From Candidatus Omnitrophica bacterium UBA6233 (GTDB taxonomy: Bacteria > Omnitrophota > Gorgyraeia > Gygaellales > Profunditerraquicolaceae), in NCBI GenBank assembly GCA_002440965.1, contig DJWJ01000016.1, positions 7,409 through 71,408 on the forward strand: DNA of 64,000 bases, in the 5' to 3' direction. Shown one piece after another: positions 9,382-35,534 of this stretch. A program made the position numbers and the translations under genes. The notes beneath the pieces are model-generated. The model was not told the DNA's origin. It saw nothing but the letters and a program-made list of their open reading frames with translations, and did no database searches. Numbering within the stretch: the first letter of the stretch is position 1; each line of letters starts with the position of its first letter.

Positions 9382-9591
9382 ATGTGCTTGGGTATACCTA
9401 TGAAGATCAGGAAGATTAACGGAGATTTTGCCGAGGTGGAATCCGGAAGGCTTTTACGCAATGCCAGCATTCAGATGTTACCCGGTTTAAAAGTGGGTGA
9501 TTATGTGCTGGTGCACGCCGGTTTTGCTATCCAAAAGGTTAATCCGGAAAGGGCTAGGGAAACTTTAAAGATTGCCAATGAGATACGTTGA
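9382..9591 (+). CDS. hypC: hydrogenase maturation factor HypC
   Basis: N-terminal 'MCLGIP' with essential Cys2, and 'VGDYVLVHAGFAI'. Confidence 0.8.
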   Translation: MCLGIPMKIRKINGDFAEVESGRLLRNASIQMLPGLKVGDYVLVHAGFAIQKVNPERARETLKIANEIR

Positions 9592-10666
9592 TGAATTCCG
9601 AAATCCTAAGTTAGTCGAAAAAATCGCCGCAAGAATATCCAGCATCAACCCCGGGGATAAAATTGATATTATGGAGGTTTGCGGAACCCATACACAGAAT
9701 TTTTACCGTTTTGGGTTAAGAGAGCTTTTGCCTAAAAATGTCAGGTTAATTTCCGGACCCGGTTGTCCGGTGTGTGTAAGCCCGCAAAAGTATATTGATT
9801 CCGCTATTGAATTGGCCAAAGATAAGGATGTAATTATCGCTACCTTTGGCGATATGTTGCGCATGCCCGGAACCAATTCTTCGCTGGAAGAAGAAAAAAC
9901 CGAGTTTGGAAATGTCCGTATAGTCTATTCTCCTTTGGACACATTGTTTATAGCCAAAAAGAATCCCCACAAGAAAATAGTGTTTTTGGCGGTTGGTTTC
10001 GAGACCACCGCACCCACCATCGCCCTAACAATTTTATCCGCAAAAAAAGAGAAACTAAAGAATATTTTCTTTCTCTCGTCGCTTAGACTAATCCCGCCGG
10101 CTATGCGGTATTTGTTATCCGATAAGAGGCTCAAAATCGACGCATTTTTATGCCCGGGTCATGTTTCGGCAGTTATCGGAACGCAAGATTATGAATTTAT
10201 CCCGAAGAAATATGGAAAAGCCTGTTGTATCGCTGGTTTTGAGCCAGTGGATATTTTGGAAGGAATATGTAGAATTCTAGAGCAAATTATCCTAAATAAG
10301 CCATATGTGGCTAATCAATATACGCGCATAGTTACTAAAACCGGGAATACCCGGGCAAAAAGAGTCACTAACCGTGTGTTTGGAATAAGAGATTCTGAAT
10401 GGCGCGGCCTTGGTTTTATACCGGATAGCGGTCTAGAATTAAAAAGAGAATTTTCTGTTTTTGACGCAAAACGCGTTTTTTCTATTAGCGACAAGAAAAT
10501 CAAGGAAAAAATAACAAGTAGCTGCAGATGCGCTGATATTCTAAAAGGTGTTATTTCTCCGGAAGATTGTCCTTTATTTGTAAGAGCGTGCAATCCGGAT
10601 AATCCTATTGGCCCATGTATGGTTTCCAGCGAAGGAACGTGTAATGCATATTATAGGTATCGTTAG
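9572..10666 (+). CDS. hypD: hydrogenase maturation factor HypD
   Basis: 'CGTHTQNF', 'GPGCPVCV', 'FETTAP' and a C-terminal Cys-rich region; 364 aa. Confidence 0.85.
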   Translation: MPMRYVDEFRNPKLVEKIAARISSINPGDKIDIMEVCGTHTQNFYRFGLRELLPKNVRLISGPGCPVCVSPQKYIDSAIELAKDKDVIIATFGDMLRMPGTNSSLEEEKTEFGNVRIVYSPLDTLFIAKKNPHKKIVFLAVGFETTAPTIALTILSAKKEKLKNIFFLSSLRLIPPAMRYLLSDKRLKIDAFLCPGHVSAVIGTQDYEFIPKKYGKACCIAGFEPVDILEGICRILEQIILNKPYVANQYTRIVTKTGNTRAKRVTNRVFGIRDSEWRGLGFIPDSGLELKREFSVFDAKRVFSISDKKIKEKITSSCRCADILKGVISPEDCPLFVRACNPDNPIGPCMVSSEGTCNAYYRYR

Positions 10667-13124
10667 AAAGTTAAAAGTCAAAAGTCCCTGCCTGCCCGGC
10701 AGGCAGGAAAAGTCAAGACTACAGAGGAAAAATGAAAAATTCAAGTTTTGGGCTGTAGCTTTAGGTTTTTCTCTCTTGTTTTTGCCTTTGCTGATTGGCT
10801 GTGCGCAAAAGATTGAATCGAAGCCGCAAGACTATGCCAAGTTATCCGAGGATTACTACAGTAAGGCCATTAAAGAGTATGAAAGGTCAATCTTCGCCGA
10901 TAAGAATACGGATAAGCCGTATTTTGAATTGGGCAAACTCTACTACGGGCACGGAGATTTTGAGAATGCCGTGAGGGCGTTTCAAAAATCAGCCCTTCCC
11001 GCAGCCGGAAAATTTATTGGTATAGCATATTACCGCCTAGGAGATTACACAAGCGCTCTGGAGATGTTTAACCGCGGGAAATCAACCGATGGGGAGTACG
11101 GATATTATTACGGGTTGACTTGCGAAAAGCTGAATTTATTTGATCAGGCCTTAAATATTTATAAAGGAATTAATGACGGAGAATTCCAGGCTAAAGCAAA
11201 GGCCCGGATTGAGGCAATCGAAAGAAATATTAGTTCAGCGCATATTCGGGACCTAGACCCGGAAATAAGCAGGATTATAGTTTGTTCTCCACAGCAAAAT
11301 AGCTATCCTCAGGCAGCCGCGCTTATTCTCTGGGCCGACGAAGAAATAGAGGTGACCAAAGATAACACCGGGGTATCGCGCCTTCATTATTTGATTAAGA
11401 TTCTTAATGAACGAGGAAAGGAAAATCTTGCGGAAGCCCAAATAGAGTATGATTCCACATTTGAAAAAGTGGAGTTGGAGTACGCGCGCACCATTAAACC
11501 TGACGGCAAGCTGGTTAATGTGGGATCTCGCCACATCCGCGACGTATCGAAATATCTGAACTTCCCGCTTTATAGCAACAATCGGGTCTTTATAATTTCA
11601 TTTCCCGAAGTAGCTATAGGTTCTTGTCTAGAGTATAAACTTAAAATAAAGCGCAGCGAGCTTATCAACAAGAAAGACTTTGTTTTAAATTATCCCCTGC
11701 AGTCTGAAGAGCCGATTATTTCGGCGGATTTTTCGTTTATTCTACCAAAAGAGAAAAAACTTAAAATTAAGGTCATCAACGAGGAGTATAATGATTTCAA
11801 AGCGGTTCTTATTCCTTTTGTTGAAGAACGGGGGGATAGCCTGATTTATCGCTGGAAATTCAAAGATATCCCGCAGATAATCCCGGAGCCCAATATGCCG
11901 CCCGATGTCGAAATCAATCCCATGATTTTATTATCTACTTTCCAGAGTTGGGATGAGGTCTACGATTGGTGGTGGAATTTAGCTAAAAACAAAATCCAGG
12001 CAGATCCAGCCATTAAGCAAAAGGTGAAGGCGTTAATCAGAAAAAAGCATTCTGACGGAGAAAAGGCGCGTTCAATTTATAATTTTTGCGCTCAAAACAT
12101 TCGTTATGTCGCGGTAGAATACGGGCAGGCCGGTTATGAGCCGCATTCGGCAAGCGAAATATTTAAGAATAAATACGGCGATTGCAAGGATCAGGCAATA
12201 CTTTTAGTTACCATGTTTAAAGAAGCTGGCCTTGACGCTTATCCGGTGCTTATCAGCACTGATAAGTCCATTGATCTTAATCCCGACCTGCCGGCAACAT
12301 TGTTTAATCATTGTATAGTGGCTTTGGAAATAAATGGGAAGACTATATTTCTTGATCCTACCGCTCAAACCTGTTCCTTCGCAGACCTGCCTCAGCAAGA
12401 TCAGTTACGCAAGGTTTTGGTATTTAGCCCGGACGGATACAAAATATTGGATACACCGTTATTCCCTCCGGAGCATAACTTAGCCCGTCAGGATCTAAGC
12501 ATAACAGTGAACGAAAACGAAGGGGTAACCGCCGATAAAAAGAATCTTACCCGCGGTTTGTATGATCAAATTCAGCGTTACTGGCTCCTCTATACTCAGC
12601 CTGAGCTCATCCAGGATGTTTTAAATAATGCGGCACAGGAAGTTTCAATCGGGGCTAAAGTGGATAAATATAAAATTGATAATTTAAGCGATTTAAATAA
12701 GCCGGTTGTGTTGTCGTACAGTTTTTCCGGGAATGAGTTTTTCATTGTTTCGGGAGCCTTGAGGATTTTGCCGCAATTGGCCTCGGTTAACACATCTTTA
12801 GTTTCCAAGCTTAAGCGGAAATATCCGATTGACCTTGCCCTCTTGGATACTAAGGAAGAATTCTTCGAGATAAATCTTCCCGGCGGTTTTATCATTAAGA
12901 ATATGCCGGAGAATCTAAACGAGGATAGTCCATGGTTAAGGGTTGAAGTAGAATATGGCTATAAAGATAACAAGGTTTTCTCCCGGCAGCAAACCGAAAC
13001 CAAGAAAAGGATAATTTCACAGAACGAATATCCATCTTTCAAAGTTTTTTTAGAGAAAATAGCGAGAGAACTCAAGCAAAGGATAATTTTAGAAAAGGTA
13101 GATGGCGAATATGAGAAAAAATGA
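10644..13124 (+). CDS. TPR-repeat / DUF3857 / transglutaminase-like lipoprotein
   Basis: Lipobox 'LLIGCAQK'; TPR-like 'YFELGKLYYGHGDFENAVRAFQKS'; transglutaminase core 'KYGDCKDQAILLVTMFKEAGLDAYPVL'. Start assigned to the ATG at 10644. The N-terminal basic region is encoded by the repeat element. Confidence 0.55.
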   Translation: MHIIGIVRKLKVKSPCLPGRQEKSRLQRKNEKFKFWAVALGFSLLFLPLLIGCAQKIESKPQDYAKLSEDYYSKAIKEYERSIFADKNTDKPYFELGKLYYGHGDFENAVRAFQKSALPAAGKFIGIAYYRLGDYTSALEMFNRGKSTDGEYGYYYGLTCEKLNLFDQALNIYKGINDGEFQAKAKARIEAIERNISSAHIRDLDPEISRIIVCSPQQNSYPQAAALILWADEEIEVTKDNTGVSRLHYLIKILNERGKENLAEAQIEYDSTFEKVELEYARTIKPDGKLVNVGSRHIRDVSKYLNFPLYSNNRVFIISFPEVAIGSCLEYKLKIKRSELINKKDFVLNYPLQSEEPIISADFSFILPKEKKLKIKVINEEYNDFKAVLIPFVEERGDSLIYRWKFKDIPQIIPEPNMPPDVEINPMILLSTFQSWDEVYDWWWNLAKNKIQADPAIKQKVKALIRKKHSDGEKARSIYNFCAQNIRYVAVEYGQAGYEPHSASEIFKNKYGDCKDQAILLVTMFKEAGLDAYPVLISTDKSIDLNPDLPATLFNHCIVALEINGKTIFLDPTAQTCSFADLPQQDQLRKVLVFSPDGYKILDTPLFPPEHNLARQDLSITVNENEGVTADKKNLTRGLYDQIQRYWLLYTQPELIQDVLNNAAQEVSIGAKVDKYKIDNLSDLNKPVVLSYSFSGNEFFIVSGALRILPQLASVNTSLVSKLKRKYPIDLALLDTKEEFFEINLPGGFIIKNMPENLNEDSPWLRVEVEYGYKDNKVFSRQQTETKKRIISQNEYPSFKVFLEKIARELKQRIILEKVDGEYEKK
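10667..10719. repeat. short palindromic repeat element, copy 1: AAAAGTCAAAAGTC flanks around CCTGCCTGCC-CGGCAGGCAGG
   Basis: A near-identical element occurs at 28079-28138. Both copies lie in-frame inside ORFs. Confidence 0.7.
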
Positions 13125-15075
13125 GTATTTAGGAAAAGAGAAACGGCAATACGTGCGTTTAGACACGGTTTTTCCCGTGCAATTCCGCCTTGTAAGCGTC
13201 GACGGCAAAATTAACTTATCCGACTGGTTACAGGGGTTTACCAGCGATTTAAGCAAAGGCGGGATATGTTTATGCGTAAACAACTTCGAACCGGGCCTTC
13301 TGCAATTAATCAAAGAGCATAAGGTAAAACTCTCCTTGGCCATAGATATACCATTCTTAAGAAAGCCGGTAGATGTTTTAGCTGTTCCGGTTTGGACGAG
13401 AGAGAAGGCAGGTGCCGTCAACAAATGTTACATCGGGCTTTCTTATGAAAAAATAAATTCTGCCGCCAATAGTAGGTTAATGATTTATGCTCGGGGGAAG
13501 AAGTTATTCGTTCCGGCGGTTTTAGGGGCCATCATTCTTTTGGGGGCGCTTTTAGCATTAAACGGCCTTATAAACATGGAGCTTAAAAAGAATAACAGGG
13601 CCTTAGTTAAGGCTTTGACCGCGGTAATTCAGGAATCCCAAGCCGTCCGGCAGAAAATAAGCGATGTAAACAAGGAAAAAGCGCTTTTGGAATCAAATAT
13701 CCAGGCGCTAGAATCGCGTATAAAAGCAGCAGATTACGAAAGGCTAAAGCTGAAAAGTAAGACGCAAACCGAATTGTCCGAGCTCACGGAGCAGTCCGGG
13801 AGAAAAATAGATGACCTAAGCAATCTTATTAAACAGTTAACAATGGAAAAAGAGGAGCTTAGGGGTAAGTTGGCTGCTACTCGAATCAAAGAGAGCGTTA
13901 TCGTTAAGGAGGCGGCCCGAATAGAAGAGAAGAAGGCGGTTATAGAGAAGGCAAATTTTGATGCGATGTATCAATGGATTAAGGTGCATCAAAATCCCCG
14001 CACCGGCCTGGTGGTGAGCTTCGAGGGGGACAACGATATAAGCGGATGGGCTTTTACTTATGACCAGTCCTTGGTTATACAAGCTTTTACTAATTTTAAA
14101 GATTTTGAACGCGCAAGAAAAATGCTGGATTTTTTCAATAACCGGGCTGAAAAGAAGGACGGCTTATTCTTAAACGCCTATTATGCTAACGACGGTTTGC
14201 CCTCCGAAGTTATAGTCCATTGCGGGCCGAATATTTGGCTGGGGATTGCGGCAGTTCAATATACTTATAAGACCAATGATAAAAAATATCTTAGTATGGC
14301 CGAGAGTATTGCCGATGGTATAATTGATTTACAAAAACAAGATGCCGAAGGAGGATTGCGCGGAGGGCCCAGCGTGACGTGGTATGCCACAGAGCATAAT
14401 CTTGACGCATACGCATTCTTCAATATGTTATACGTACTTACGAGTAAACAGAAATATTTGGAGGCCAGAGATAAGGTATTGGATTGGCTGGTTAAGAATA
14501 CCTATAATAAGACAGATATTCCTATTAAGCGCGGCAAAGGAGATTCTACTATTGCCACCGATACTTACGCTTGGTCAATTGCCGCCATCGGCCCGGATAA
14601 ATTGGAAAGTTTAGGGATGGATCCAGATAGAATTATGGATTTCGCGGAGAAGACCTGCAGCGTAAACGTTTTTTATACAAAACCGGAAGGAGATAAGGTT
14701 AAAATCAAAGGTTTTGATTTTGCTCCCGAAAGACATGTTTCCCGCGGAGGAGTAGTTTCTTCGGAGTGGACTGCCCAGATGGTCATTTCTTTTAAGATTA
14801 TGGCGGATTATTATCTTAAGAAAAATATTCCCGGCAAGGAAAACAGTTATCGGTTGAAAGCGGATGAATATCTTCTTTCTTTAAGCAATATGATTATTTC
14901 CAGTCCATCTGCTTCGGGCCAGGGGGCAAACTGTCTGCCTTACGCCAGCCAAGATTTTGTAGATACGGGGCATGGTTGGTTTACGCCAAAAGGCAAAGAT
15001 ACCGGGTCAGTATCCGGGACTACCTATACAATCTTTGCTTATTATAATTACAATCCCTTGGAATTCAAAGATTAA
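13102..15075 (+). CDS. PilZ-domain protein with TM segment, coiled coil and a C-terminal (alpha/alpha)6-barrel-like domain
   Basis: N-terminal PilZ motifs 'RQYVRLDTVFPVQF' and 'DLSKGGICL'; hydrophobic segment 'VPAVLGAIILLGALLAL'; long heptad-like region; C-terminal glycosidase-like fold is inferred only. Confidence 0.5.
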   Translation: MANMRKNEYLGKEKRQYVRLDTVFPVQFRLVSVDGKINLSDWLQGFTSDLSKGGICLCVNNFEPGLLQLIKEHKVKLSLAIDIPFLRKPVDVLAVPVWTREKAGAVNKCYIGLSYEKINSAANSRLMIYARGKKLFVPAVLGAIILLGALLALNGLINMELKKNNRALVKALTAVIQESQAVRQKISDVNKEKALLESNIQALESRIKAADYERLKLKSKTQTELSELTEQSGRKIDDLSNLIKQLTMEKEELRGKLAATRIKESVIVKEAARIEEKKAVIEKANFDAMYQWIKVHQNPRTGLVVSFEGDNDISGWAFTYDQSLVIQAFTNFKDFERARKMLDFFNNRAEKKDGLFLNAYYANDGLPSEVIVHCGPNIWLGIAAVQYTYKTNDKKYLSMAESIADGIIDLQKQDAEGGLRGGPSVTWYATEHNLDAYAFFNMLYVLTSKQKYLEARDKVLDWLVKNTYNKTDIPIKRGKGDSTIATDTYAWSIAAIGPDKLESLGMDPDRIMDFAEKTCSVNVFYTKPEGDKVKIKGFDFAPERHVSRGGVVSSEWTAQMVISFKIMADYYLKKNIPGKENSYRLKADEYLLSLSNMIISSPSASGQGANCLPYASQDFVDTGHGWFTPKGKDTGSVSGTTYTIFAYYNYNPLEFKD

Positions 15076-17067: not shown

Positions 17068-18036
17068 ATGGAAGGAATTAAAATTATAAAACGGCCTCGC
17101 CTAAAGAAGCCCTATTTGATCGTTGCTTGGCCGGGAATGGGGGAAGTTGCTTTTAGGGCCGCCACCTATCTGGTTGAAAAGTTGAATGCCGAAGAATTTG
17201 CTTCGTTGAATGCGGAAGACTTCTTTTATCTGGCCGGAAGCATGGTTAAGGATGGCTTGTTAAGTGCATCAGATTTACCAGAGAGTAAATTTTACTTCTG
17301 GAAGAATAGAAAAGGGAAAAACGATCTTATAATATTTTTGAGTAATGCCCAGCCGGATTTAGCCAGGGCCGAAGGATACTCCAAGATTATTATTCAGGTA
17401 GCTAAGAGTTTTAAGGTTGATAAGGTAGTTAGCTTTGCCTCTATGCCGCAGGGAATCGATCATACCCAAGATCCCAGGTTGTGGTTTGCCGCTACCTCGC
17501 AAGATTTAAGCAATACCCTAAAGAAATTCAACTTTAAAAGCTTGAGAGAAGGTTTGATTAGCGGAATGAACGGACTTTTTCTGGGTATAGCTAAAAGAGA
17601 AGGTATCGATGGGTTCTGTCTTTTGGGAGAAATCCCGCTTTATACCATTCAGATCGAAAACCCAAAAGCCTCCAGAGCTGTTTTAGAGGCTTTGTTTGCG
17701 ATTACCGGAATTCAGGTTGATTTATCCGGTTTATTTATACAGGCACAGGCCATGGAAGACGAAATCAATAAACTTTTGGATTACTTGAAGCTTGGGTCGG
17801 CAGCTAACGGGCCAATCGGAGAGGAAGATATAGAAAAAATAAAAAAGACTCTGAACCAGCTTACCAAGCTTCCCGTTTCAGTCAAAGAAAGGATTGAGCA
17901 GTTTTTTTCCCAGGCTAAAACCGATGTATCAAAGGCCCGTGAACTTAAAGTCGAACTCGATAAGTGGAATGTTTATAAAGAATACGAAGACAGATTTTTG
18001 GATCTATTCAAGAAGACCGGTGAAAAAAACAACTAG
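17068..18036 (+). CDS. PAC2-family (proteasome-assembly-chaperone-like) protein
   Basis: 'PYLIVAWPGMGEVAFRAATYLV' is characteristic of bacterial/archaeal PAC2-family proteins. Confidence 0.5.
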   Translation: MEGIKIIKRPRLKKPYLIVAWPGMGEVAFRAATYLVEKLNAEEFASLNAEDFFYLAGSMVKDGLLSASDLPESKFYFWKNRKGKNDLIIFLSNAQPDLARAEGYSKIIIQVAKSFKVDKVVSFASMPQGIDHTQDPRLWFAATSQDLSNTLKKFNFKSLREGLISGMNGLFLGIAKREGIDGFCLLGEIPLYTIQIENPKASRAVLEALFAITGIQVDLSGLFIQAQAMEDEINKLLDYLKLGSAANGPIGEEDIEKIKKTLNQLTKLPVSVKERIEQFFSQAKTDVSKARELKVELDKWNVYKEYEDRFLDLFKKTGEKNN

Positions 18037-19030
18037 AATATTATTGGGGCATGGCAGCGGCGGAAGGCTCACCCATAATTTCATTAAGCAAGTGCTGCTT
18101 GAAAAATTAAAGAATCCAATTCTAGGGGAATTGGCTGATAGCGCGGTCATAAATTACAAAGAACAAGTCGCTTTTACTACGGATTCTTTTGTGGTGAGCC
18201 CCTTATTTTTCCCCGGAGGAGACATTGGCAAGCTTTCGGTATCCGGCACAGTTAATGATCTGGTCATGCTAGGAGCTGTTCCGGAGTATCTTTCTTTGGC
18301 CTTGATTGTAGAGGAGGGGTTAGAGCAGAAAATTCTTGAGAGGATAATTTGTTCGGTAGCCATTCAGGCTAAAAACTCAAGGGTGCAGATTGTTACCGGA
18401 GATACAAAAGTCGTAGAAAGACTGGCCGCCGATAAATTATTTATTAACACTTCAGGCCTAGGTAGGTTAATTTCTTCGAGAAGGTTGTCCTTGAAGGGTA
18501 TCTCGCCCGGCGATAAAATTATCATTACCGGAAATATCGCCGAACACGGTTTGAGTATTCTTGCTAAAAGAAAAGAATTGGGCTTAAACTTTAATATTAA
18601 AAGCGATTGCGCAAGCCTCAACGGATTGATTATCCCGCTCTTAAGGATCACCAAGGCAATAAAATTTATGCGCGACCCGACGCGAGGAGGGATAGCGACA
18701 ACTTTAAATGAAATCTCCGAAGGCTCCGGGTTAGGAATTATTCTCGAGGAGAAAGACATTCCGATATCTCCGAAGGTAAGGGCGGCTTCGGAATTATTGG
18801 GCATAGATCCTCTTTATGTCGCTAATGAAGGAAAGGCTTTGTTGGTCGTAGAACCTAAAGAAGCGCAAAGAATCGTGGCTGTTCTTAGAAAAAATCCCTT
18901 AGGTCGTAACGCTAAAATTATCGGGACAGTTAAAAAGACGCCGCGAGGCAGGGTTGTGTTGCGCACCGCTTTTAATACCGAGCGTATTTTGGATATGTTA
19001 ACTTCTGATCCATTACCGAGGATATGTTAA
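18020..19030 (+). CDS. hypE: hydrogenase maturation factor HypE (PurM-like), GTG start
   Basis: 'ILLGHGSGG', PurM-like fold motifs and the invariant C-terminal 'PRIC'. GTG at 18020 chosen; 17-nt overlap with the upstream gene. Confidence 0.85.
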   Translation: MKKTTRILLGHGSGGRLTHNFIKQVLLEKLKNPILGELADSAVINYKEQVAFTTDSFVVSPLFFPGGDIGKLSVSGTVNDLVMLGAVPEYLSLALIVEEGLEQKILERIICSVAIQAKNSRVQIVTGDTKVVERLAADKLFINTSGLGRLISSRRLSLKGISPGDKIIITGNIAEHGLSILAKRKELGLNFNIKSDCASLNGLIIPLLRITKAIKFMRDPTRGGIATTLNEISEGSGLGIILEEKDIPISPKVRAASELLGIDPLYVANEGKALLVVEPKEAQRIVAVLRKNPLGRNAKIIGTVKKTPRGRVVLRTAFNTERILDMLTSDPLPRIC

Positions 19031-19976: not shown

Positions 19977-20966
19977 ATGAGAACGGTCGGGTTAACCTAC
20001 GATTTAAAGACAGATTATCAATTTAAAGAAGGCGATCCTCTTGATGCTAACGCTGAATTCGATCATCCATCGACTATTGATATTATTGCTTGCGCAATTG
20101 AAGCAAACGGTTTTAAAGTAGAGAGGATAGGTAACGCCGGGAATCTTCTCGAAAAATTATCTTCTTTAAGGGTGGACATTGTTTTTAATATCTCCGAAGG
20201 ATTAACCGGGAGAAACCGTGAATCCCAAGTACCCATATTACTTGAGATGGCCGGAATTCCTTTTGTTGGCTCAGACGCTCTTACTCTTGGGCTTACTTTG
20301 GATAAGGTTATGGCCAAAAAGATTTTTATCGCTGAGAAAATACCCACTCCAAAATTTATTGAAACAAGCTCAGTGGAAGAATTAGCAAATACCAATCATT
20401 ACAAGTTTCCTTTAATCGTAAAGCCGCGCTTTGAGGGTTCTTCCAAAGGTTTAAGCGAAAGTTCCCGGGTTGAAAATAGAGATGACTTGCTTAAGCAGGT
20501 TGGATATATTGTTAATGCTTATAAACAACCAGTGCTGGTTGAAGAGTTTATATCCGGTCAGGAATTTACTGTGGCTCTTGTAGGAAACGATCCTGCGGAA
20601 GTTCAGCCAATCGTTCAAATTAAAATCGACGGAAAACTAAAATTAAACGACAGGTTTTACACCTTTGCCCGTATTACTTCCGATAGATTGGAATATATTT
20701 GTCCGGCAAAAATCCCTCAAGAATTAAAGAAGAAGATCGATGATCTGGCCTTAAGGACTTATAAAGCGGTAGATTGCCGTGATTTCGGACGGGTTGATTT
20801 TCGGGTTGACAATGAAGGCAAGCCCTATGTCTTAGAGATAAACCCTTTGCCTTCCCTGTCTACCGAAGACGTATTTATGCTTTTAGCCAAAAACACAGGT
20901 ATTACTTATGAGCAGATGATTGGCAAAATCTTAAATAGCGCAATTAAAAGGCATAATCTCGACTAA
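19977..20966 (+). CDS. D-Ala-D-Ala-ligase-like ATP-grasp enzyme, paralog 1
   Basis: Ddl-family architecture: N-domain 'VDIVFNISEGLTGRNRESQVPILLEMAGIPFVGSD', central 'PLIVKPRFEGSSKG', C-terminal 'FGRVDFRVD...YVLEINPLP'. Confidence 0.65.
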   Translation: MRTVGLTYDLKTDYQFKEGDPLDANAEFDHPSTIDIIACAIEANGFKVERIGNAGNLLEKLSSLRVDIVFNISEGLTGRNRESQVPILLEMAGIPFVGSDALTLGLTLDKVMAKKIFIAEKIPTPKFIETSSVEELANTNHYKFPLIVKPRFEGSSKGLSESSRVENRDDLLKQVGYIVNAYKQPVLVEEFISGQEFTVALVGNDPAEVQPIVQIKIDGKLKLNDRFYTFARITSDRLEYICPAKIPQELKKKIDDLALRTYKAVDCRDFGRVDFRVDNEGKPYVLEINPLPSLSTEDVFMLLAKNTGITYEQMIGKILNSAIKRHNLD

Positions 20967-21968
20967 ATGAAGATTGCCCTAACGTATAATTTAAAAAAGA
21001 AGGATACGACAAAACCCGCGGATTATTTTTCGGAGTGTGACTCCGAAGAAACCATTAACGCCATCACCGGGGCTATCCGCAGAAAAGGTCATAATGTCGA
21101 GGCAATCGACGTAGAATATCCCAAGTTATTCTCTTATTTTAGGAAAAATTCGGTAGATATGGTTTTTAATATTGCCGAAGGCAAGTCAGGTAAGTTTCGC
21201 GAGTCGGAAGTTCCGGCGATATTAGATTACCTAAAAATTCCTTACACAGGTTCAGATACATTCTCCTTAGCCTTAGCTTTGAATAAGGCCCTTACCAAGA
21301 AGATTTTAAAAGCCGAAAATATCCCGACTCCGAATTTCCAGGTTTTTATTAAAGGAACGGAAGAATTGAACCCGGATTTAAGATTTCCTTTGATCGTAAA
21401 GCCAAATTGCGAAGGTTCGGCTAAAGGGATTAGCAAGCTCAATGTGGTTAATAACACGGAGGATTTATTCAAGCGGGTTAAAGATATTCTTAGCGTATAT
21501 AAACAGGAAGCCCTGGTGGAAGAATTCATCGAAGGCAAAGAGCTTACCGTAGGGATTTTGGAAAACGGCAAGACCCGCGTCCTGCCGATCTTAGAAATTG
21601 ATTTCTCCGACTGTAAGAATAGCGGAGAATATTTTTATTCCTGGAAGATGAAGGAATACCAGGGAAATAAAGAGTTGGGGTTAGTGCCGACTTTTCACTG
21701 CCCGGCGCGCCTGGATTCGGAGACTGAAAAAGCGGTTAAGGATGTCGCACTCAGGACGCATCGCGCAGTCGGCTGCCTGGATATTTCACGTACCGATATA
21801 CGTTTGGACAAATTCAATGTGCCTTATGTTCTGGAGATTAATCCTCTCCCGGGTTTAGATCCTAAGGAATCAAATTTTCCAATTATGGCGTATGCCGCGG
21901 GAATGAAATACGAAGATCTTATTGAGGCAATAATTCTAAGCGCCTCTGAAAGGAAAGGCTTAAATTGA
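20967..21968 (+). CDS. D-Ala-D-Ala-ligase-like ATP-grasp enzyme, paralog 2
   Basis: Collinear with paralog 1: 'VDMVFNIAEGKSGKFRESEVPAILDYLKIPYTGSD', 'PLIVKPNCEGSAKG', 'YVLEINPLPG'. Its start codon directly abuts the previous stop. Confidence 0.65.
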   Translation: MKIALTYNLKKKDTTKPADYFSECDSEETINAITGAIRRKGHNVEAIDVEYPKLFSYFRKNSVDMVFNIAEGKSGKFRESEVPAILDYLKIPYTGSDTFSLALALNKALTKKILKAENIPTPNFQVFIKGTEELNPDLRFPLIVKPNCEGSAKGISKLNVVNNTEDLFKRVKDILSVYKQEALVEEFIEGKELTVGILENGKTRVLPILEIDFSDCKNSGEYFYSWKMKEYQGNKELGLVPTFHCPARLDSETEKAVKDVALRTHRAVGCLDISRTDIRLDKFNVPYVLEINPLPGLDPKESNFPIMAYAAGMKYEDLIEAIILSASERKGLN

Positions 21969-23152
21969 GCAGCGTTCAGGCAATTGAAAATCAAAAATTG
22001 CAGCAGGAAAACGCTAATGTTGTACGCACAAGCAGAAAGCCCCGGGACTACCAGCAGATAGGTATTTATAAGGACATTAACCCTTTGGACTGGGAAGATT
22101 GGCATTGGCAGATAAAGAACAGGATTTGCACCAAAGATGTTCTGGCGCAGATAATCAGTTTGACTCCCGACGAGGAAAAGGGGATTGATAAGGCTAGGGG
22201 CCGTTTATCCATGGCTATAACTCCTTATTGGGGTTCTCTTCTTGATCAGGAAGACGCCAATTGTCCGATCAGGCGTCAATCTGTTCCGGTAATCCAGGAA
22301 TCCATGGTTACTCCGCATGAAATGACTGATCCTTGCGCCGAAGACAGAGATTCTCCGGCTCCGCATTTGGTGCACCGCTATCCAGATAGGGTTCTACTAT
22401 TGGCGACTGACCATTGCGCTATGTATTGCCGGCATTGCACGCGCCGGCGTCTGGTTGGCGATCATGAGGTCAAAGATGCAAATTCTGCGGATAGGTTTGA
22501 TGCAGCTATCGAATACATAAAAGCCAACCGTAAAATAAGGGATGTGCTGATATCCGGAGGCGACCCGTTAATTCTGGAAGACGAAGAATTGGAAAAGCTG
22601 CTGCAAAAGATTCGTTCTATATCGCACGTGGAATTTTTAAGGATCGGCACGCGTATCCCGGTGACTCTTCCTCAGCGCATTACGGAAAACCTGGTGAATA
22701 TGCTTAAAAAATATTCGCCGATCTGGATGAGTATACATTTTAATCACCCCAAGGAGATTACCAAACGCTGCAAGATTGCCTGCGATATGCTTTCGGAGGC
22801 AGGCGTTCCCTTAGGGAGTCAAACGGTCTTGCTTAAGGGTGTTAATGATCGGCCCTTCATAATGAAAAAGCTGGTTCATGAATTGTTGCAGATAAGGGTA
22901 AGGCCGTATTATATTTATCAGTGCGATCCGGTGCGCGGCACGCAGCATTTCCGGACTCCCGTAGCTACCGGGATAAATATCATGGAGAAGTTGCGCGGAC
23001 ATACTTCCGGATACGCTGTCCCTACCTATGTTATTGATGGTCCTGGCGGAGGCGGAAAAATTCCCGTGGGGCCGAATTATATTCTTTCACAGGCTAAAGG
23101 AAAATACGTCCTGCGTAATTATAAGGGTAAGATTTACACCTACCTAGAATAA
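21965..23152 (+). CDS. kamA: lysine 2,3-aminomutase (KamA-family radical SAM/PLP enzyme)
   Basis: 'WEDWHWQIKNRI', 'PYWGSLL', 'CPIRRQSVP', radical SAM 'CAMYCRHCTRRR', and 'YYIYQCDPVRGTQHFRTP'. Confidence 0.8.
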   Translation: MSSVQAIENQKLQQENANVVRTSRKPRDYQQIGIYKDINPLDWEDWHWQIKNRICTKDVLAQIISLTPDEEKGIDKARGRLSMAITPYWGSLLDQEDANCPIRRQSVPVIQESMVTPHEMTDPCAEDRDSPAPHLVHRYPDRVLLLATDHCAMYCRHCTRRRLVGDHEVKDANSADRFDAAIEYIKANRKIRDVLISGGDPLILEDEELEKLLQKIRSISHVEFLRIGTRIPVTLPQRITENLVNMLKKYSPIWMSIHFNHPKEITKRCKIACDMLSEAGVPLGSQTVLLKGVNDRPFIMKKLVHELLQIRVRPYYIYQCDPVRGTQHFRTPVATGINIMEKLRGHTSGYAVPTYVIDGPGGGGKIPVGPNYILSQAKGKYVLRNYKGKIYTYLE

Positions 23153-23221: not shown

Positions 23222-25177
23222 ATGGACGTTAAGAATAAACGCAATTTTATTCTTTTAGGTCATGCCCAATCAGGCAAAACCAGCCTCGCCGAAAGTATAC
23301 TTTATTTCTCCAAAGCTACTACCCGCAAAGGAAAAATCGAAGATGGTTCGACTACTAGCGATTATAGCTTTGATGAAATCGAGAAAAAACATTCCATAAA
23401 TTTAAGTTTGCTCTTTTGTGATTATCAGGGCGCGCGTTTGCAGATAGTGGATACCCCTGGATACGCGGATTTTTCCGGAGAGGTTATTTGTGGAATCCGG
23501 GCTGTAGATAGCGCGGTCATCGTGGTGGATAGCGCAAACGGTGTGCAGGCAGGTACGCAGCGTGGCTGGGAAATGTGCGAAGAGGCCAATATCCCTTGTA
23601 TGATTTTTATCAACAAGGTGGATAAAGAAGGGGCGGATGTTAATAAAATTTTAGCGGATTTAAAATCCAGCCTCTCCAAAAACTGCGTTATAATTCAGTC
23701 TTTGGAAGATTCTCTTTTGGTGGAAGCGATTGCCGAAAGCGATGACAGTTTGCTGGAAAAATATCTGGCGACCTTGCGTCTATCACAGGAAGAGATTAAG
23801 AATGGCTTAGCTCAGGCCGTAAATAAGCGCAAAATTTTTCCGGTCTTGGCAGGTTCAGCGCTTACTGATAAAGGAATTAAAGATTTACTGGATGATATTC
23901 TGCAGTATCTGCCTGGTCCTTTGGAGAGAAATCCGGTTAAAGCGTTTAATCCTTTAAAACCCGAAGAAGCCAAAGAGGTGGTTTTAAAAGAGGATGCTCC
24001 GTTTTCCGCGCTTGTTTTTAAAAACATCTCGGATCCTTTTGTGGGCCAGCTTACTTTGCTACGGGTTTTCTCGGGAAAGCTTTTAAGCGATACCGGGTTT
24101 TATAACGTAAGCCGGAAATCAAAGGAAAGAATCGGTCCGATTTATATTTTACAGGGCAAAGAGCAGCGTCAAATTGAAGCTGCAATCAGCGGCGATATTG
24201 TAGCTATCGCCAAATTGAAAGATACGGGTGTAGGGGATTCGCTCTCAAGAGACAAAGAGCAATTTTTATTCGAACCGCTAGTTTTTCCGGAAGCGGCAAT
24301 TTCCGCTTCGGTTAAGCCTAAGAGCCGCGAGGATGAGGAAAAAATATCCGATGCTTTGCATAAGCTGGCGGCCGAGGATCATACCTTTGGAGTAAGGCAT
24401 GATCCGCAAACCAAAGAATTGATTATTTCGGGGATGGGCGATTTGCATTTGTCAGTAATGGTTGCCCGGATGAAAAAAAGATTTAATGTCGTTGTCGATT
24501 TAGGGACCCCGAAAGTTTCCTATAAAGAAACGATTACGAAGAGTATAAAAGTTCAGGGAAAATTTAAGCGCCAGTCCGGCGGCCGCGGCCAATACGGCGA
24601 TTGTTGGATTGAGGTTGAACCCCTGGGAAGAGGAAAAGGTTTTGAGTTCGTGGATAAGATATTCGGAGGTGCAATTCCGCGTAACTTCATTCCTTCCGTC
24701 GAAAAAGGCGTACGGCAAGCAGCCTTGGAAGGAGCGGTTGCCGGACATCCGATTGAAGATATCCGGGTAACTCTGGTTGACGGCTCTTATCATGAAGTCG
24801 ACTCGTCGGATATGGCTTTTCAAATTGCTGGAGCCATGGCTTTACGTAAGGCAGTAATGGATGCCGGTCCGGTATTGTTGGAGCCGATAATGGATGTGGA
24901 GATAAATATCCCGGAAGATTGCCTGGGGATTATTTCCGGAGATATTAATTCCAGGCGCGGCAGAGTTATGGGGATGGAAATTAAAGGTAAACAGCAGATT
25001 ATTAAGGTTCAGGCGCCGCTGGCGGAGATGTTTAAATACGCCAATGACCTGCGTTCAATAACCGGAGGCCGCGGGACCTACACCATGCGATTTTCGCACT
25101 ACGAAGAAGTACCGCATAAAATCGCTGGCTCGATTATTACTCAATATCAAGCCTCAAAAAAACAGGAAGAACAGTAA
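23222..25177 (+). CDS. elongation-factor-G-like translational GTPase (EF-G paralog)
   Basis: G1 'GHAQSGKTSL', G3 'DTPGYADF', G4 'NKVDK', and EF-G domain IV/V-like C-terminus; 651 aa. Confidence 0.7.
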   Translation: MDVKNKRNFILLGHAQSGKTSLAESILYFSKATTRKGKIEDGSTTSDYSFDEIEKKHSINLSLLFCDYQGARLQIVDTPGYADFSGEVICGIRAVDSAVIVVDSANGVQAGTQRGWEMCEEANIPCMIFINKVDKEGADVNKILADLKSSLSKNCVIIQSLEDSLLVEAIAESDDSLLEKYLATLRLSQEEIKNGLAQAVNKRKIFPVLAGSALTDKGIKDLLDDILQYLPGPLERNPVKAFNPLKPEEAKEVVLKEDAPFSALVFKNISDPFVGQLTLLRVFSGKLLSDTGFYNVSRKSKERIGPIYILQGKEQRQIEAAISGDIVAIAKLKDTGVGDSLSRDKEQFLFEPLVFPEAAISASVKPKSREDEEKISDALHKLAAEDHTFGVRHDPQTKELIISGMGDLHLSVMVARMKKRFNVVVDLGTPKVSYKETITKSIKVQGKFKRQSGGRGQYGDCWIEVEPLGRGKGFEFVDKIFGGAIPRNFIPSVEKGVRQAALEGAVAGHPIEDIRVTLVDGSYHEVDSSDMAFQIAGAMALRKAVMDAGPVLLEPIMDVEINIPEDCLGIISGDINSRRGRVMGMEIKGKQQIIKVQAPLAEMFKYANDLRSITGGRGTYTMRFSHYEEVPHKIAGSIITQYQASKKQEEQ

Positions 25178-25182
25178 AATTT

Positions 25183-25884
25183 ATGAAGATAAGCGTAATC
25201 GGTTTACCGGAGTTAAATCCCGGTAAGCATAATGTTAAAGATTCTCGTTTGGACGAAGTGGATAGTATAACCAAAGCTAAAAAGAAGACCTATGTCCAGG
25301 CTGAAGTTGTGGAAGAAGCAGCGGCAATTGACGCAGATGCAATTTTAGTCGTTAAAGATTCAGCGAGCGACCTTATCCTTAAGGATCTGGAATTTGTGGA
25401 AACTCGGCTTACGCGTTCGACGGAAGAAGCGGAAAAAGCTTTATTCAATAAACTAAAAGCGGCTTTAGAAAAAGAGCAGTTTATATTTAACGCGGGGCTT
25501 GCGGAAACTGAAAAAAAAGAATTGATCAAATACGGTTTGCTTACCGCGAAACCGGTGATTGTTGCCGAGGCCAAAGACCTGGAAGATAAAAATGCCCTTT
25601 TGCTTAGAGTATTAAAGGAAGGCGGATATATCAGTTTTTTTACTACCGGTGAAAAAGATACCCGGGCCTGGCTCATTCGAAACGGCGCAAACGCCTGGGA
25701 GGCCTCGGGGGCTATACACTCGGATATACAACAGGGGTTTATTCGGGCTGAAATCATTGCTTTTAAGGATTTTATGGAGTGCGGCGGAGAAAATAGAGCC
25801 AAACAAGCCGGCAAAATGCGTCTGGAGTCAAAAGAATATATAATGCAGGATTGTGATTTAGCCAATTTTAGGTTTAATAAATAG
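25183..25884 (+). CDS. YchF-like protein retaining the helical and TGS/C-terminal domains but lacking a functional P-loop G domain
   Basis: The C-terminus 'RAWLIRNGANAWEASGAIHSDIQQGFIRAEII...AGKMRLESKEYIMQDCDLANFRFNK' matches the YchF C-terminal domain. The N-terminus 'KISVIGLPELNPGKHN' is a degenerate Walker A; 233 aa versus about 360 aa for YchF. Confidence 0.5.
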   Translation: MKISVIGLPELNPGKHNVKDSRLDEVDSITKAKKKTYVQAEVVEEAAAIDADAILVVKDSASDLILKDLEFVETRLTRSTEEAEKALFNKLKAALEKEQFIFNAGLAETEKKELIKYGLLTAKPVIVAEAKDLEDKNALLLRVLKEGGYISFFTTGEKDTRAWLIRNGANAWEASGAIHSDIQQGFIRAEIIAFKDFMECGGENRAKQAGKMRLESKEYIMQDCDLANFRFNK

Positions 25885-30780: not shown

Positions 30781-31119
30781 ATGAGACATATAAGCCAGGG
30801 AAAATCCAGCCTCGGGATGGAAGCGAACATAGCCGCTGTCTTAAGCTACCTTTTCGGTTTTATTACCGGCCTTATTTTCTATGCTTTGGAAAAAGAAAAT
30901 AAATTCGTGCGGTTTCATGCCGCGCAGTCGACCATAGCCTTCGGGTTTTTGTTTATGGTAGGCGTTGTGGCAAGATTCCTGCCGTTAGTAGGATTTATAA
31001 TCATGACATTGGTGGGTATAATAGAAATAGTTCTTTGGATTATCCTCATGATTAAAGCCTATCGAGGGGAATATTTTGAACTGCCGATAATCGGCGAATT
31101 TGCCCGAAGAAAATCCTGA
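30781..31119 (+). CDS. DUF4870-family small membrane protein
   Basis: 'AAVLSYLFGFITGLIFY...FVRFHAAQS' and two TM segments. Confidence 0.5.
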   Translation: MRHISQGKSSLGMEANIAAVLSYLFGFITGLIFYALEKENKFVRFHAAQSTIAFGFLFMVGVVARFLPLVGFIIMTLVGIIEIVLWIILMIKAYRGEYFELPIIGEFARRKS

Positions 31120-33872: not shown

Positions 33873-35534
33873 ATGCGGAAAATCTTGATTATTAGTAAAA
33901 GCGCTTTGCTGTTTAGTTTTATTTTATCAGCATCTTTTTTGTTAAGGATGACACCTTCTAAAGGGTGCGTTCTTGAGTTTGTTTCTGACAGCGCCTTCAA
34001 TTATCGCATGACCGCATCGGTTATTCAAAAGGGGTCCGTACCTATAATTGATCGCTTGAGTATTTATCCTGAAGGCAAAAACATAAGAAATTTTCTTCCC
34101 ATCGGGCTTTACCATGCAGGAGCAGTTTTTCACAGGTTTTTAAATATCTTTAGGCAAATCCCGCTTAATGAATCTTTGCTGATTTTTGCCGCTTTTTTTA
34201 GTTCCTTGATTTGCGTCCCTGTTTATTTCTTATCGTTAGAGATCTATAGAAATGAAAAAATAATAGCCTTCCTTTGTGCGTTTTTATCCGCGATTATCCC
34301 CGCTTATCTGCATAGGACGTTCTGTTATATGTATAGATATGAAGTGCTGGCTGCGCCGTTACTTTTTATGAGTTTGCTATTTTTTATCATGGCCTTTAGA
34401 GAGAATAACGGTAAGCTGCGGTTTACTTGTTATTTTGGGACGTCCCTTTTTTGGCTGATGTTAGCTTCTTGGGTTTGGAGGCTGTATGTTTTATTCTTAA
34501 TTGCCTATCTTATCAGTATCGCTTATCTTTGTCTGAAACGCCGAAATTTGCTCGGAAATGAATGGATAAAAATTATTATTTCCGGGGTATGCGTTCTGCT
34601 GTTATTTTTCGCATTGGGCTTGGCTCAAATCCCGAGATATTCCGGATTGCCGTATCTCCGGACTTTTTTTGAGGTTTTCATACAACGCCTGTATCCTCCG
34701 TATAATTTTAGTCAATTCTCCAAAGTTATTTATTACGTAAACGAATTGTCAGGAGTTAGTATCTTAGGACTATTGGGGACTAAGTTTCTGTCTTTTTCAG
34801 GAGTATTCGCTATTTTTTACTTATACGCCTGCTTTAGAAAACAGAAGTTTAATCCGCAAAAATTTATTTTGCAGTTTTTCATAATCCTTTTCCTCGTGCT
34901 CACCCTGCTTTTTTCGAGATTCAAGATAATCTTGGGGCCCTTGATCGCTTTGTCTTTGGGAGAAAGTCTGTTTTTTGTTTTTCATAATTACAGGGGAATA
35001 ATGAAGAAGATTTTATTGGGTCTTTTGGTCATAATTTTTGTTAAAACAGGGTGTGATGCCTGGAGATTGGCCAGTACGAGATTTAAATATGCCGGTATGG
35101 ATGCCGAATTAAAGCAAGTTATCTCGGCGGTGAATAGGTTGACCTCGAAAAACGCCGTGATACTTTGCGATTGGGGGCAGGGTTATTCCATTCAGACGTA
35201 TTGTAATCGTCCGACAATAACCGACGGCCTCTTGGAGAGCCCGGAGATAATCAAAAGAATTATAAGGGTGGCCAAGGTTTTCAACTCTTATGATGAACAG
35301 GCGCTACGGTTGTTTTGTAAGGAGTATGGTGTAACTCATATCTTGGTTGCCAAAAGGTTGGATTACGCATTTGCATATTCACAATATTCAGGCCGCGGTT
35401 TTACCATGGGCAAGGGCGCTAACGATAAGGACGTGCCCTTAATATATAAATTATTTTATCGTTCGCCCGATTTAAAAAGAATCGATTTCTTGTATGAAAA
35501 TAAAGGATTTATTTTATTCGCGCTGAAAGATTGA
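33873..35534 (+). CDS. polytopic membrane glycosyltransferase with STT3/PglB/AglB-like 'WWDYG' region (putative oligosaccharyltransferase)
   Basis: About 11 predicted TM helices. 'CDWGQGYSIQTYCNRPTITDG' aligns to PglB '[21 protein letters not shown]' (G-Y-x3-x-Y-x4-T-x2-DG pattern). Confidence 0.4.
   Translation: MRKILIISKSALLFSFILSASFLLRMTPSKGCVLEFVSDSAFNYRMTASVIQKGSVPIIDRLSIYPEGKNIRNFLPIGLYHAGAVFHRFLNIFRQIPLNESLLIFAAFFSSLICVPVYFLSLEIYRNEKIIAFLCAFLSAIIPAYLHRTFCYMYRYEVLAAPLLFMSLLFFIMAFRENNGKLRFTCYFGTSLFWLMLASWVWRLYVLFLIAYLISIAYLCLKRRNLLGNEWIKIIISGVCVLLLFFALGLAQIPRYSGLPYLRTFFEVFIQRLYPPYNFSQFSKVIYYVNELSGVSILGLLGTKFLSFSGVFAIFYLYACFRKQKFNPQKFILQFFIILFLVLTLLFSRFKIILGPLIALSLGESLFFVFHNYRGIMKKILLGLLVIIFVKTGCDAWRLASTRFKYAGMDAELKQVISAVNRLTSKNAVILCDWGQGYSIQTYCNRPTITDGLLESPEIIKRIIRVAKVFNSYDEQALRLFCKEYGVTHILVAKRLDYAFAYSQYSGRGFTMGKGANDKDVPLIYKLFYRSPDLKRIDFLYENKGFILFALKD

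Follow-up and report, generated by a model that had tools for sequence, protein, structure and literature searches.

The window analyzed here is a 64,000-nucleotide stretch of the genome of Candidatus Omnitrophica bacterium UBA6233 (contig DJWJ01000016.1, positions 7,409 to 71,408). At positions 23222-25884 it contains two adjacent open reading frames (ORFs), which encode a paralog of elongation factor G (here EF-G2) and a shortened homolog of YchF/Ola1 (here mini-YchF). A first-pass annotation, made from the sequence alone, had reported these two ORFs after kamA and ATP-grasp genes, and both the coordinates and the neighbors were confirmed: directly upstream of EF-G2 are kamA and two Ddl-like ATP-grasp genes. 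The same transcriptional direction of the two genes, which had also been pointed out, is real; however, the strand bias of the window is extreme, with 52 of 53 real genes on the + strand, and therefore the shared direction carries no information. The two genes and their features are as follows.

23222..25177, + strand: EF-G2-type (EFG II-like) elongation factor G paralog, 651 aa (five Pfam domains, NCBIfam scores, PDB matches)
23258..23281, + strand: G1/P-loop of EF-G2, GHAQSGKT, then S-L (aa 13-22)
23450..23464, + strand: G3 motif of EF-G2, DTPGY (aa 77-81), with Tyr replacing the catalytic His of DTPGH
23699..23716, + strand: deletion of approximately 48 residues in the G' subdomain, around aa 160-165 of EF-G2
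25164..25169, + strand: Shine-Dalgarno-like AGGAAG for mini-YchF, inside the last EF-G2 codons (..KKQEEQ*), seen in the sequence
25183..25884, + strand: mini-YchF ("sYchF"), 233 aa, YchF/Ola1 homolog without any nucleotide-binding loop
25183..25353, + strand: first part of the remnant G-domain core of mini-YchF, aa 1-57: beta1, beta2, helix, beta3, helix, beta4 (AlphaFold2 [AF2] model, alignment A1)
25354..25533, + strand: helical hairpin (aa 58-96) and next helix (aa 108-117) of mini-YchF, equivalent to the YchF coiled-coil domain (AF2 model, alignment A1)
25627..25881, + strand: TGS/YchF C-terminal domain of mini-YchF, aa 149-233, which holds most family-invariant residues

EF-G2 and its relatives

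All five Pfam domains of the 651-aa protein (GTP_EFTU, EF-G_D2, EFG_III, EFG_IV, and EFG_C) scored above their cutoffs. The protein also passed the "elongation factor G" subfamily model NF009381 (835 bits; cutoff, 583) as well as NF009891, and it missed the canonical equivalog TIGR00484 by 8 bits (651.6 versus 659.4). The NCBIfam EF-G2 equivalog cutoffs were not reached (NF009377, 572.8 versus 890; NF058620, 492.5 versus 1000). Against S. aureus EF-G, residues 165 to 641 (domains II to V) gave 492 bits, with conservation of SGGRGQYG, which contains the domain IV loop SGGRGQ, and of SYHEVDSS; the G domain (residues 4 to 160) gave 82 bits only. When the G domain was searched alone, the best PDB match was T. 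thermophilus EF-G-2 (1WDT), which has "GHAxSGKT.L" and "PGY" in common with it. According to Margus et al. (2011), Gly16 and Leu25 (1WDT numbering) are specific to EFG II, and EFG I has Ala and Thr at these positions. In LLGHAQSGKTSL, G13 and L22 align to G16 and L25 of 1WDT, and thus both EFG II signature positions of the G domain are present.

The G1 (GHAQSGKT), G3 (DTPG), G4 (NKVD), and G5 (GSALTDKG) motifs are intact, and the G2 Thr is a Ser. In all canonical translational GTPases, DTPG is followed by a histidine; the Tyr of DTPGY at this position is invariant among the EF-G2 orthologs (alignment A2). At the G' deletion, residues 160 and 165 align to residues 164 and 213 of S. aureus EF-G, leaving S. 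aureus residues 165 to 212 without a counterpart; a more distant ortholog (locus L008; 681 aa as called) keeps approximately 30 more residues at this site. EF-G2 is located outside a str operon, with kamA and mini-YchF as its neighbors and no adjacent rpsL, rpsG, or tuf. Lacking DTPGH and a str position, and scoring below the TIGR00484 cutoff, it does not qualify as canonical EF-G (EFG I). On these sequence features, we class the 651-aa protein as an EF-G2/EFG II-type paralog of EF-G and not as a mildly diverged fusA product. The first-pass annotation had described it as a diverged EF-G paralog that keeps G1, G3, and G4, which was correct for the motifs and the paralogy, but it had missed the His-to-Tyr replacement and the loss of approximately 48 residues from G'.

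Like the EF-G2/EFG II proteins of T. thermophilus (1WDT), M. smegmatis (9K0Z/9K10), and Bacteroides, the window protein has five domains, a gene outside the str operon, and indels in G', and it is a member of this already known kind. With T. thermophilus EF-G-2 it further shares the Gly16/Leu25-type P-loop signature and Tyr in the position of the catalytic His. It differs from the EF-G2 subfamily in that canonical EF-G is its better overall match (577 bits, compared to 420 bits for 1WDT and 430 bits for 9K0Z). Moreover, it is paired with mini-YchF, a pairing undescribed for any characterized EF-G2.

From contigs of one genome per species, 80 relatives of EF-G2 were recovered, the scan having reported at least 522. 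Their identity to EF-G2 was 47 to 96% in Omnitrophota and 44 to 47% in other phyla, with L010 as the nearest species genome of the GTDB-based collection (EF-G2 96% identical). The close homologs of both EF-G2 and mini-YchF come from Omnitrophota metagenome-assembled genomes. In the species-genome scan, the residue after DTPG was Y, F, D, or S in relatives with a readable motif, and never H. Such His-less EF-G paralogs, which have 670 to 717 aa and carry Y, F, D, or S after DxPG, are widespread: they were seen in Omnitrophota (L047-L054, L060, and L066) and in other phyla (L059-L089), among them Deltaproteobacteria, Aminicenantes, Nitrospinota, and Methylomirabilota.

The 651-aa protein could be the only EF-G of the organism, responsible for all translocation and recycling despite the His-to-Tyr replacement. 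Its domains II to V are indeed very canonical, with the 492-bit match and the two conserved motifs described above; it passed NF009891 and missed TIGR00484 narrowly, and the genomes are small. Bacteroides EF-G2 is, furthermore, able to sustain translation without GTP hydrolysis. However, EFG II was always accompanied by another EF-G in the survey of Margus et al. (2011), in which a lone EF-G was always EFG I. In addition, complete Omnitrophota chromosomes carry canonical S12-S7-EF-G-EF-Tu-S10-L3 operons (2026 preprint), and the window gene is not in one. Finally, the identity of EF-G2 within the phylum falls to 52 to 57%, which is about the overall conservation of the EFG I subfamily (52%; Margus et al. 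2011). Because of this co-occurrence rule, the str operons, and the divergence, we regard a sole EF-G as very unlikely. By analogy, the window EF-G2 is most likely a second copy beside a canonical str-operon EF-G, for which its position outside str and the operons of other Omnitrophota argue. Among the annotated ORFs of the 64-kb window, no rpsL, rpsG, tuf, canonical fusA, or full-length ychF was found, and the Omnitrophota locus flanks sampled contained no canonical fusA or full-length ychF either.

Anatomy, fold, and conservation of mini-YchF

The only Pfam domain detected in mini-YchF was the YchF C-terminal/TGS domain PF06071 (aa 150 to 232; E value, 3.9e-33; profile positions 2 to 84 of 84), and the protein failed the YchF equivalog TIGR00092 (132.5 bits; cutoff, 279.2). 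Its TGS region matched residues 280 to 362 of H. influenzae YchF (1JAL) with 92 bits. The alignments showed that mini-YchF is collinear with the whole of full-length YchF, from which it differs by discrete deletions (alignments A1 and A4). The first deletion removes the P-loop, helix 1, and the start of switch I (approximately 27 aa), so that strand beta1 "KISVIGLP" is joined directly to the G2-region strand "LNPGKHNVKDSRLDEV", the equivalent of E. coli "PNTGVVPMPDPRLDQL". The second comprises DxxG, switch II, and helix 2 (approximately 26 aa), with "(V)EEA" in place of DxxG. Approximately 22 aa after beta4 and approximately 16 aa at the tip of the helical hairpin are lost by the third and fourth deletions, and the fifth removes NxxE (G4), where AEAKD is found instead, and the next approximately 60 aa including G5. 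Compared to full-length YchF, approximately 130 residues including every G motif are missing, and approximately 90 residues of the G-domain core survive; the part of the core at aa 1 to 57 has no P-loop, DxxG, or switch II.

Thus, the earlier description of the G domain as reduced to a degenerate "GLPELNPGKHN" does not hold: this peptide is a deletion junction, and the deletions are scattered over a core of which a large part remains. Without P-loop and helix 1, DxxG and switch II, NxxE, and G5, we infer that mini-YchF cannot be a canonical ATPase. This agrees with its former designation as a YchF-derived pseudo-GTPase, since no canonical nucleotide binding is predicted when all G motifs are gone (alignments A1 and A4). 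A frameshift or an upstream exon restoring the YchF G domain was also considered and excluded, because the stop codon of EF-G2 (TAA, 25175-25177) is followed after 5 nt by the ATG of mini-YchF in a different frame.

An AF2 model of mini-YchF, computed from a 38-sequence alignment, was very confident (pLDDT, 95.7; pTM, 0.86). It shows a small five-stranded alpha/beta core, a helical hairpin (aa 58 to 78 and 82 to 96), and the TGS domain. In a Foldseek search against the PDB, hits 1 to 15 were all YchF/Ola1 proteins, the best being 1JAL (E value, 6e-21; TMq, 0.82 to 0.84), and the alignments spanned the whole YchF target with all three domains. In line with this and with the PF06071 match, the helical and the C-terminal TGS-like domains are kept, as the first-pass annotation had stated. 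Of the characters of the YchF family, mini-YchF has the TGS domain and the inserted helical domain, and it lacks the Obg-type G1/G3/G4 motifs and a TIGR00092 score above the cutoff. Like YchF/Ola1, a ribosome-binding ATPase of the Obg family (TIGR00092; 1JAL, 2DBY, and 8KIE), it combines an alpha/beta core with an inserted helical hairpin and a C-terminal TGS domain, and the YchF-specific segment "G.....D.RL..L" after beta2 is conserved. Unlike them, it has 233 aa instead of approximately 363, its helical tip is approximately 16 residues shorter, and the nucleotide motifs are gone. By alignment and structural model, we conclude that mini-YchF is a miniaturized YchF and not a TGS fragment.

Divergent YchFs of 335 to 349 aa from other uncultured lineages (for example, Muiribacteriota; P0164) have a partly eroded G domain with a degenerate G3/switch II region. 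They keep the P-loop (GxxGK[ST]) and an NxxE-like G4, and mini-YchF, without all motifs, represents the extreme end. The four of them in alignment A4 (P0156, P0158, P0159, and P0164; 335 to 340 aa), one of which is named Muiribacteriota, have a P-loop, an NxxE-like motif, a degenerate G3, and no switch II. One named divergent YchF is labeled "DUF933 domain-containing protein" in its source. Given these P-loop-bearing, G3-degenerate proteins, the erosion of YchF appears to be graded across uncultured lineages. The two nearest P-loop-bearing relatives (P0156 and P0159) were examined as possible Omnitrophota intermediates at the same locus, but their contexts were uninformative.

A large protein search revealed more than 100 mini-YchF clusters (90% identity), which are almost uniformly 233 aa long, share 66 to 90% identity, and bear the source name "DUF933 domain-containing protein [Candidatus Omnitrophota]". 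An exhaustive search added approximately 25 further clusters (50% identity representatives; 225 to 235 aa) that align end to end down to 31% identity, and all named members among them are Omnitrophota/Omnitrophica. The identical window protein was found on 15 independent contigs. For the ratio of nonsynonymous to synonymous substitution rates (dN/dS), two ortholog pairs with unsaturated synonymous sites were used, since these sites are saturated at greater distance. In the remnant core and hairpin (aa 2 to 148), dN/dS was 0.11 versus L010 and 0.05 versus L011; in the TGS domain, it was 0.016 and 0.020 for the same two pairs. Mini-YchF is a conserved Omnitrophota family (229 to 235 aa) under purifying selection.

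These data also bear on the view that the 233-aa ORF is a decaying relic, a pseudogene remnant of ychF, which the loss of every G motif with approximately 130 residues and the failed equivalog model might suggest. However, the length is constant at 229 to 235 aa over 31% to 90% identity, and the precise deletions are common to the whole mini-YchF family. The fixed length, the dN/dS values of 0.02 to 0.11, and the confident AF2 model rule out a pseudogene or relic, to which we give practically no credence. In the literature search, no description of a P-loop-less YchF was found, and nothing specific on YchF or EF-G in Omnitrophota. Mini-YchF is apparently an undescribed variant of a very well-known family.

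Linkage of the two genes and the kamA neighborhood

Linkage was counted over species-genome loci with an EF-G2 of at least 60% identity and with downstream sequence. Mini-YchF directly followed EF-G2 in 38 of 38 such loci, with gaps of -80 to 221 nt (median, 12). At the four EF-G2 loci without mini-YchF, the sequence ends within 181 nt of EF-G2. The pair was also present in three deeper lineages, represented by L008 (mini-YchF 31% and EF-G2 57% identical, with overlapping stop and start codons), L091, and L092.

A purine-rich, Shine-Dalgarno-like motif was found in 29 of 39 distinct orthologous junctions, often within the C-terminal codons of EF-G2. The position of this motif inside the end of EF-G2 suggests translational coupling of the two genes. 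The scan for terminators detected no + strand terminator-like site between kamA, EF-G2, and mini-YchF. The promoter scan yielded fewer promoter-like sites than expected by chance; it shows no obvious break, and nothing further is read from it. In summary, the synteny, the Shine-Dalgarno overlap, and the lack of a terminator-like site speak for two conserved, probably coexpressed genes. As a separate observation, the acidic C terminus of EF-G2 (KKQEE.) is encoded by the Shine-Dalgarno-like purine stretch (25164-25177; junctions in L001-L058), and the KKQEE tail may be conserved, at least partly, for its RNA and not for its protein sequence.

The genes flanking the pair are given here as context only.

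21965..23152, + strand: kamA, lysine 2,3-aminomutase (KamA/AblA-like), 395 aa
25897..30763, + strand: purH, folC, mnmE, and folE, the downstream part of a conserved block (gene calls with Pfam)

The best model for KamA was TIGR03820 (AblA), which it reached with 526.2 bits (cutoff, 525.4); with the EpmB model TIGR03821, it scored 246.8 (cutoff, 369.3). It matched the C. subterminale lysine 2,3-aminomutase (LAM; 2A5H) with 478 bits, and the equivalents of Asp293 and Asp330, which we take to be the ligands of the lysine epsilon-amino group, are conserved. Its C terminus is approximately 20 aa shorter than that of C. subterminale LAM. Judged by its sequence, KamA is an ordinary lysine 2,3-aminomutase forming beta-lysine; a glutamate 2,3-aminomutase and EpmB were rejected because of the two conserved Asp residues, AblA as the best model, and the EpmB score below the cutoff. 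The tandem pair of Ddl-like ATP-grasp genes and then kamA occupy 19977-23152. The conservation of this trio throughout the clade, in some cases with a single ATP-grasp gene, suggests an undescribed beta-lysine conjugate; an AblB-type acetyltransferase was not observed. On sequence grounds, kamA and the two Ddl-like ATP-grasp ligases probably make some beta-lysine conjugate.

The order of the block in the clade is PAC2, hypE, AbpE-like, ATP-grasp (one or two), kamA, EF-G2, mini-YchF, purH, folC, mnmE, and folE. Since this 12-gene block consists of functionally unrelated housekeeping genes, its conserved order reflects descent. The spacer between kamA and EF-G2 is 69 nt in the window and varies from 20 to 1526 nt (median, about 168), exceeding 400 nt in 8 of 32 loci. 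At L028, L029, and L034, EF-G2 is kept and kamA is absent from the upstream sequence, which covers 4.7 kb or more, and mini-YchF is kept too where downstream sequence exists; L008 keeps EF-G2, mini-YchF, folC, mnmE, and folE and has no kamA in the 480 nt available upstream. In one relative (L001 7075-7929; L002 389-1243), a 284-aa gene without a Pfam match lies between kamA and EF-G2. The KamA of this relative is called with 339 aa and without LAM_C, and a separate 65-aa ORF matches the KamA C terminus, which may indicate a frameshift or a split gene.

By loose analogy to the beta-lysylation of EF-P, the first-pass annotation had proposed a link between beta-lysine chemistry and a translation-factor-like target. 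In such a scheme, KamA would make beta-lysine and an ATP-grasp ligase would attach it to EF-G2 or mini-YchF, with EF-P modification or a RimK-/LysX-type C-terminal ligation as the analog. The ATP-grasp enzymes RimK and LysX modify protein C termini, and EF-G2 ends in the acidic KKQEE(Q) tail. Furthermore, of the 35 related loci in which the sequence extends far enough upstream, 32 have kamA before EF-G2, and no terminator-like site lies in the 69-nt gap of the window. As in the EpmA/EpmB-EF-P system, the gene of a translation factor lies close to that of a KamA-family radical SAM aminomutase. Unlike in that system, the window KamA is AblA/LAM-like and falls short of the EpmB cutoff, the ligases are Ddl-like ATP-grasp proteins, and no EpmA-like (class II tRNA-synthetase-like) or EF-P gene is among the annotated window ORFs. 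Moreover, the conserved acidic tail overlaps the Shine-Dalgarno sequence of the next gene, the spacer is variable and interrupted by the 284-aa gene in one relative, and the loci named above keep EF-G2, or the pair, without kamA. The same block also holds hypE, purH, folC, mnmE, and folE, so that the adjacency is inherited gene order. We therefore find the beta-lysine link highly improbable; kamA and the ATP-grasp genes look like neighbors of EF-G2 and mini-YchF by descent, not partners.

Possible replacement of YchF and proposed function of the pair

Few bacterial proteins are as widely conserved as YchF/Ola1, a member of the bac120 marker set, and the purpose of its ATPase cycle is unclear. 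Since ychF is called in 99.4% of genomes outside the candidate phyla radiation (CPR) and in 97% of CPR genomes, a missing ychF call is unusual. In the source data of Seymour et al. (2023), which give presence/absence values and one complete KEGG Orthology (KO) list, Omnitrophota Genome 58 has PF06071 but no K06942 (ychF), and obgE, lepA, bipA, era, der, fusA, and tuf are all called in it. This raises the question of whether mini-YchF is the sole YchF-family protein of these small-genome bacteria and keeps the essential YchF function in a nucleotide-free form. Such a reductive replacement is consistent with the lack of a full-length YchF in approximately 1.3 Mb of Omnitrophota flanks and with the assignment of the nearest named full-length relatives of mini-YchF to other phyla. 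The sizes of a near-complete contig (ERZ25039512) and a complete genome, 1.19 to 1.28 Mb, both carrying the gene, fit streamlining. On the other hand, full-length YchF exists in other Omnitrophota: the PF06071 matches span residues 284-366 and 299-382, and Genomes 104 and 194 have TIGR00092 (Seymour et al. 2023). Genome 58, the one genome with a complete KO list, may or may not belong to the mini-YchF clade. Genome 58 on the one side and Genomes 104 and 194 with the long PF06071 proteins on the other show that both YchF forms exist in Omnitrophota. We give the replacement slightly better than an even chance. It overlaps with the explanation that we consider best for the pair and refines it, in that mini-YchF would not be an extra paralog with a new role.

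A failed TIGR00092 and, in one genome, a missed K06942 may lower the apparent completeness of Omnitrophota and their counts of ribosome-biogenesis factors. Indeed, a 2025 survey reported unusually few recognized ribosome-biogenesis factors in Omnitrophota, which would fit marker models missing divergent genes such as mini-YchF.

The explanation that we hold to be probable, albeit with considerable reserve, is that EF-G2 and mini-YchF are a tightly linked, probably translationally coupled, ribosome-associated pair conserved through one large Omnitrophota lineage. With G1, G3, G4, and G5 intact and a Ser for the G2 Thr, EF-G2 would still bind GTP. The histidine placed for hydrolysis by the sarcin-ricin loop is a Tyr in EF-G2, and half of G' is missing. 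In canonical EF-G, G' is the contact to L7/L12, and therefore this loss may further change the factor turnover of EF-G2. By analogy to the characterized EF-G2 proteins of Thermus, Mycobacterium, and Bacteroides, EF-G2 is most likely an auxiliary or stress-type factor that occupies the ribosomal factor site and whose GTPase activity is altered or weak. In E. coli, YchF contacts uL14, bL19, and H62 of the 50S subunit, mainly via its helical domain; this domain is essential, and YchF promotes subunit splitting. In analogy, mini-YchF is most likely a constitutive, nucleotide-independent ribosome- or RNA-binding scaffold that is predicted to act via its TGS domain and hairpin. An attractive, speculative possibility is that both proteins act jointly on the ribosome, for instance to split or park ribosomes in energy-poor, ultra-small cells.

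Several points weigh against this explanation. The pairing is old and tight in a large lineage but not obligatory: no EF-G2 is nearby at the mini-YchF loci L006, L007, L009, and L090, of which L007 is the complete 1.275-Mb genome CP070684.1. Conversely, mini-YchF is missing at six Omnitrophota EF-G2 loci that are more distant and offer 2 kb or more of sequence downstream; nor does it lie near the distant Omnitrophota EF-G2 genes (47 to 56% identity) or those of other phyla. Furthermore, all adjacencies in the 12-gene block are about equally conserved in the main clade, and thus linkage alone does not single out the pair. GTPase activity and poly(Phe) synthesis were reported for T. thermophilus EF-G-2 despite its identical Tyr, so the His-to-Tyr replacement is no proof of a dead GTPase, and "attenuated or altered" is the safer wording. 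Finally, the Lys-rich hairpin tip that contacts H62 in E. coli is shortened in mini-YchF. The binding mode may therefore differ, and the H62 contact may be lost or changed.

The tight linkage makes EF-G2 and mini-YchF, two poorly understood factors, candidate partners of each other. Mini-YchF, phylum-wide and under strong selection, is a natural separation-of-function mutant, which shed the nucleotide pocket and kept the helical and TGS lobes, and it points to these lobes as the part kept by selection. The significance would be higher if mini-YchF replaces YchF in complete genomes or if both proteins act together. A more far-reaching version is that YchF was replaced by a nucleotide-free scaffold, the cotranslated partner of a His-less EF-G2, and that both form a nucleotide-sparing module for ribosome splitting or parking in energy-limited, ultra-small cells. 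We consider this version improbable; if it is true, the conserved core function of YchF would need no ATP hydrolysis.

Some further observations concern the rest of the window. GC skew is positive in every 2-kb bin of 1-64000, and the whole window is apparently leading-strand sequence of a single replichore. The genes for hydrogenase maturation are dispersed, at 8287-9378, 9572-10666, and 18020-19030; hypD and hypE are full length. The HypF-like ORF corresponds to the C-terminal half of HypF only (profile positions 381 to 740; 236.7 bits; cutoff, 466), without the acylphosphatase and zinc-finger part. At 10608-15075, a 657-aa ORF without a Pfam or NCBIfam match comes after the gene of an 838-aa protein that has TPR, DUF3857, and transglutaminase-core domains. 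At 30781-31119 and 33873-35534, a small membrane protein of the MamF/MmsF family is encoded beside a PilZ gene (gene calls of L093), and close to the MamF/MmsF-family gene are genes for an STT3-like oligosaccharyltransferase homolog and a PKD-domain protein.

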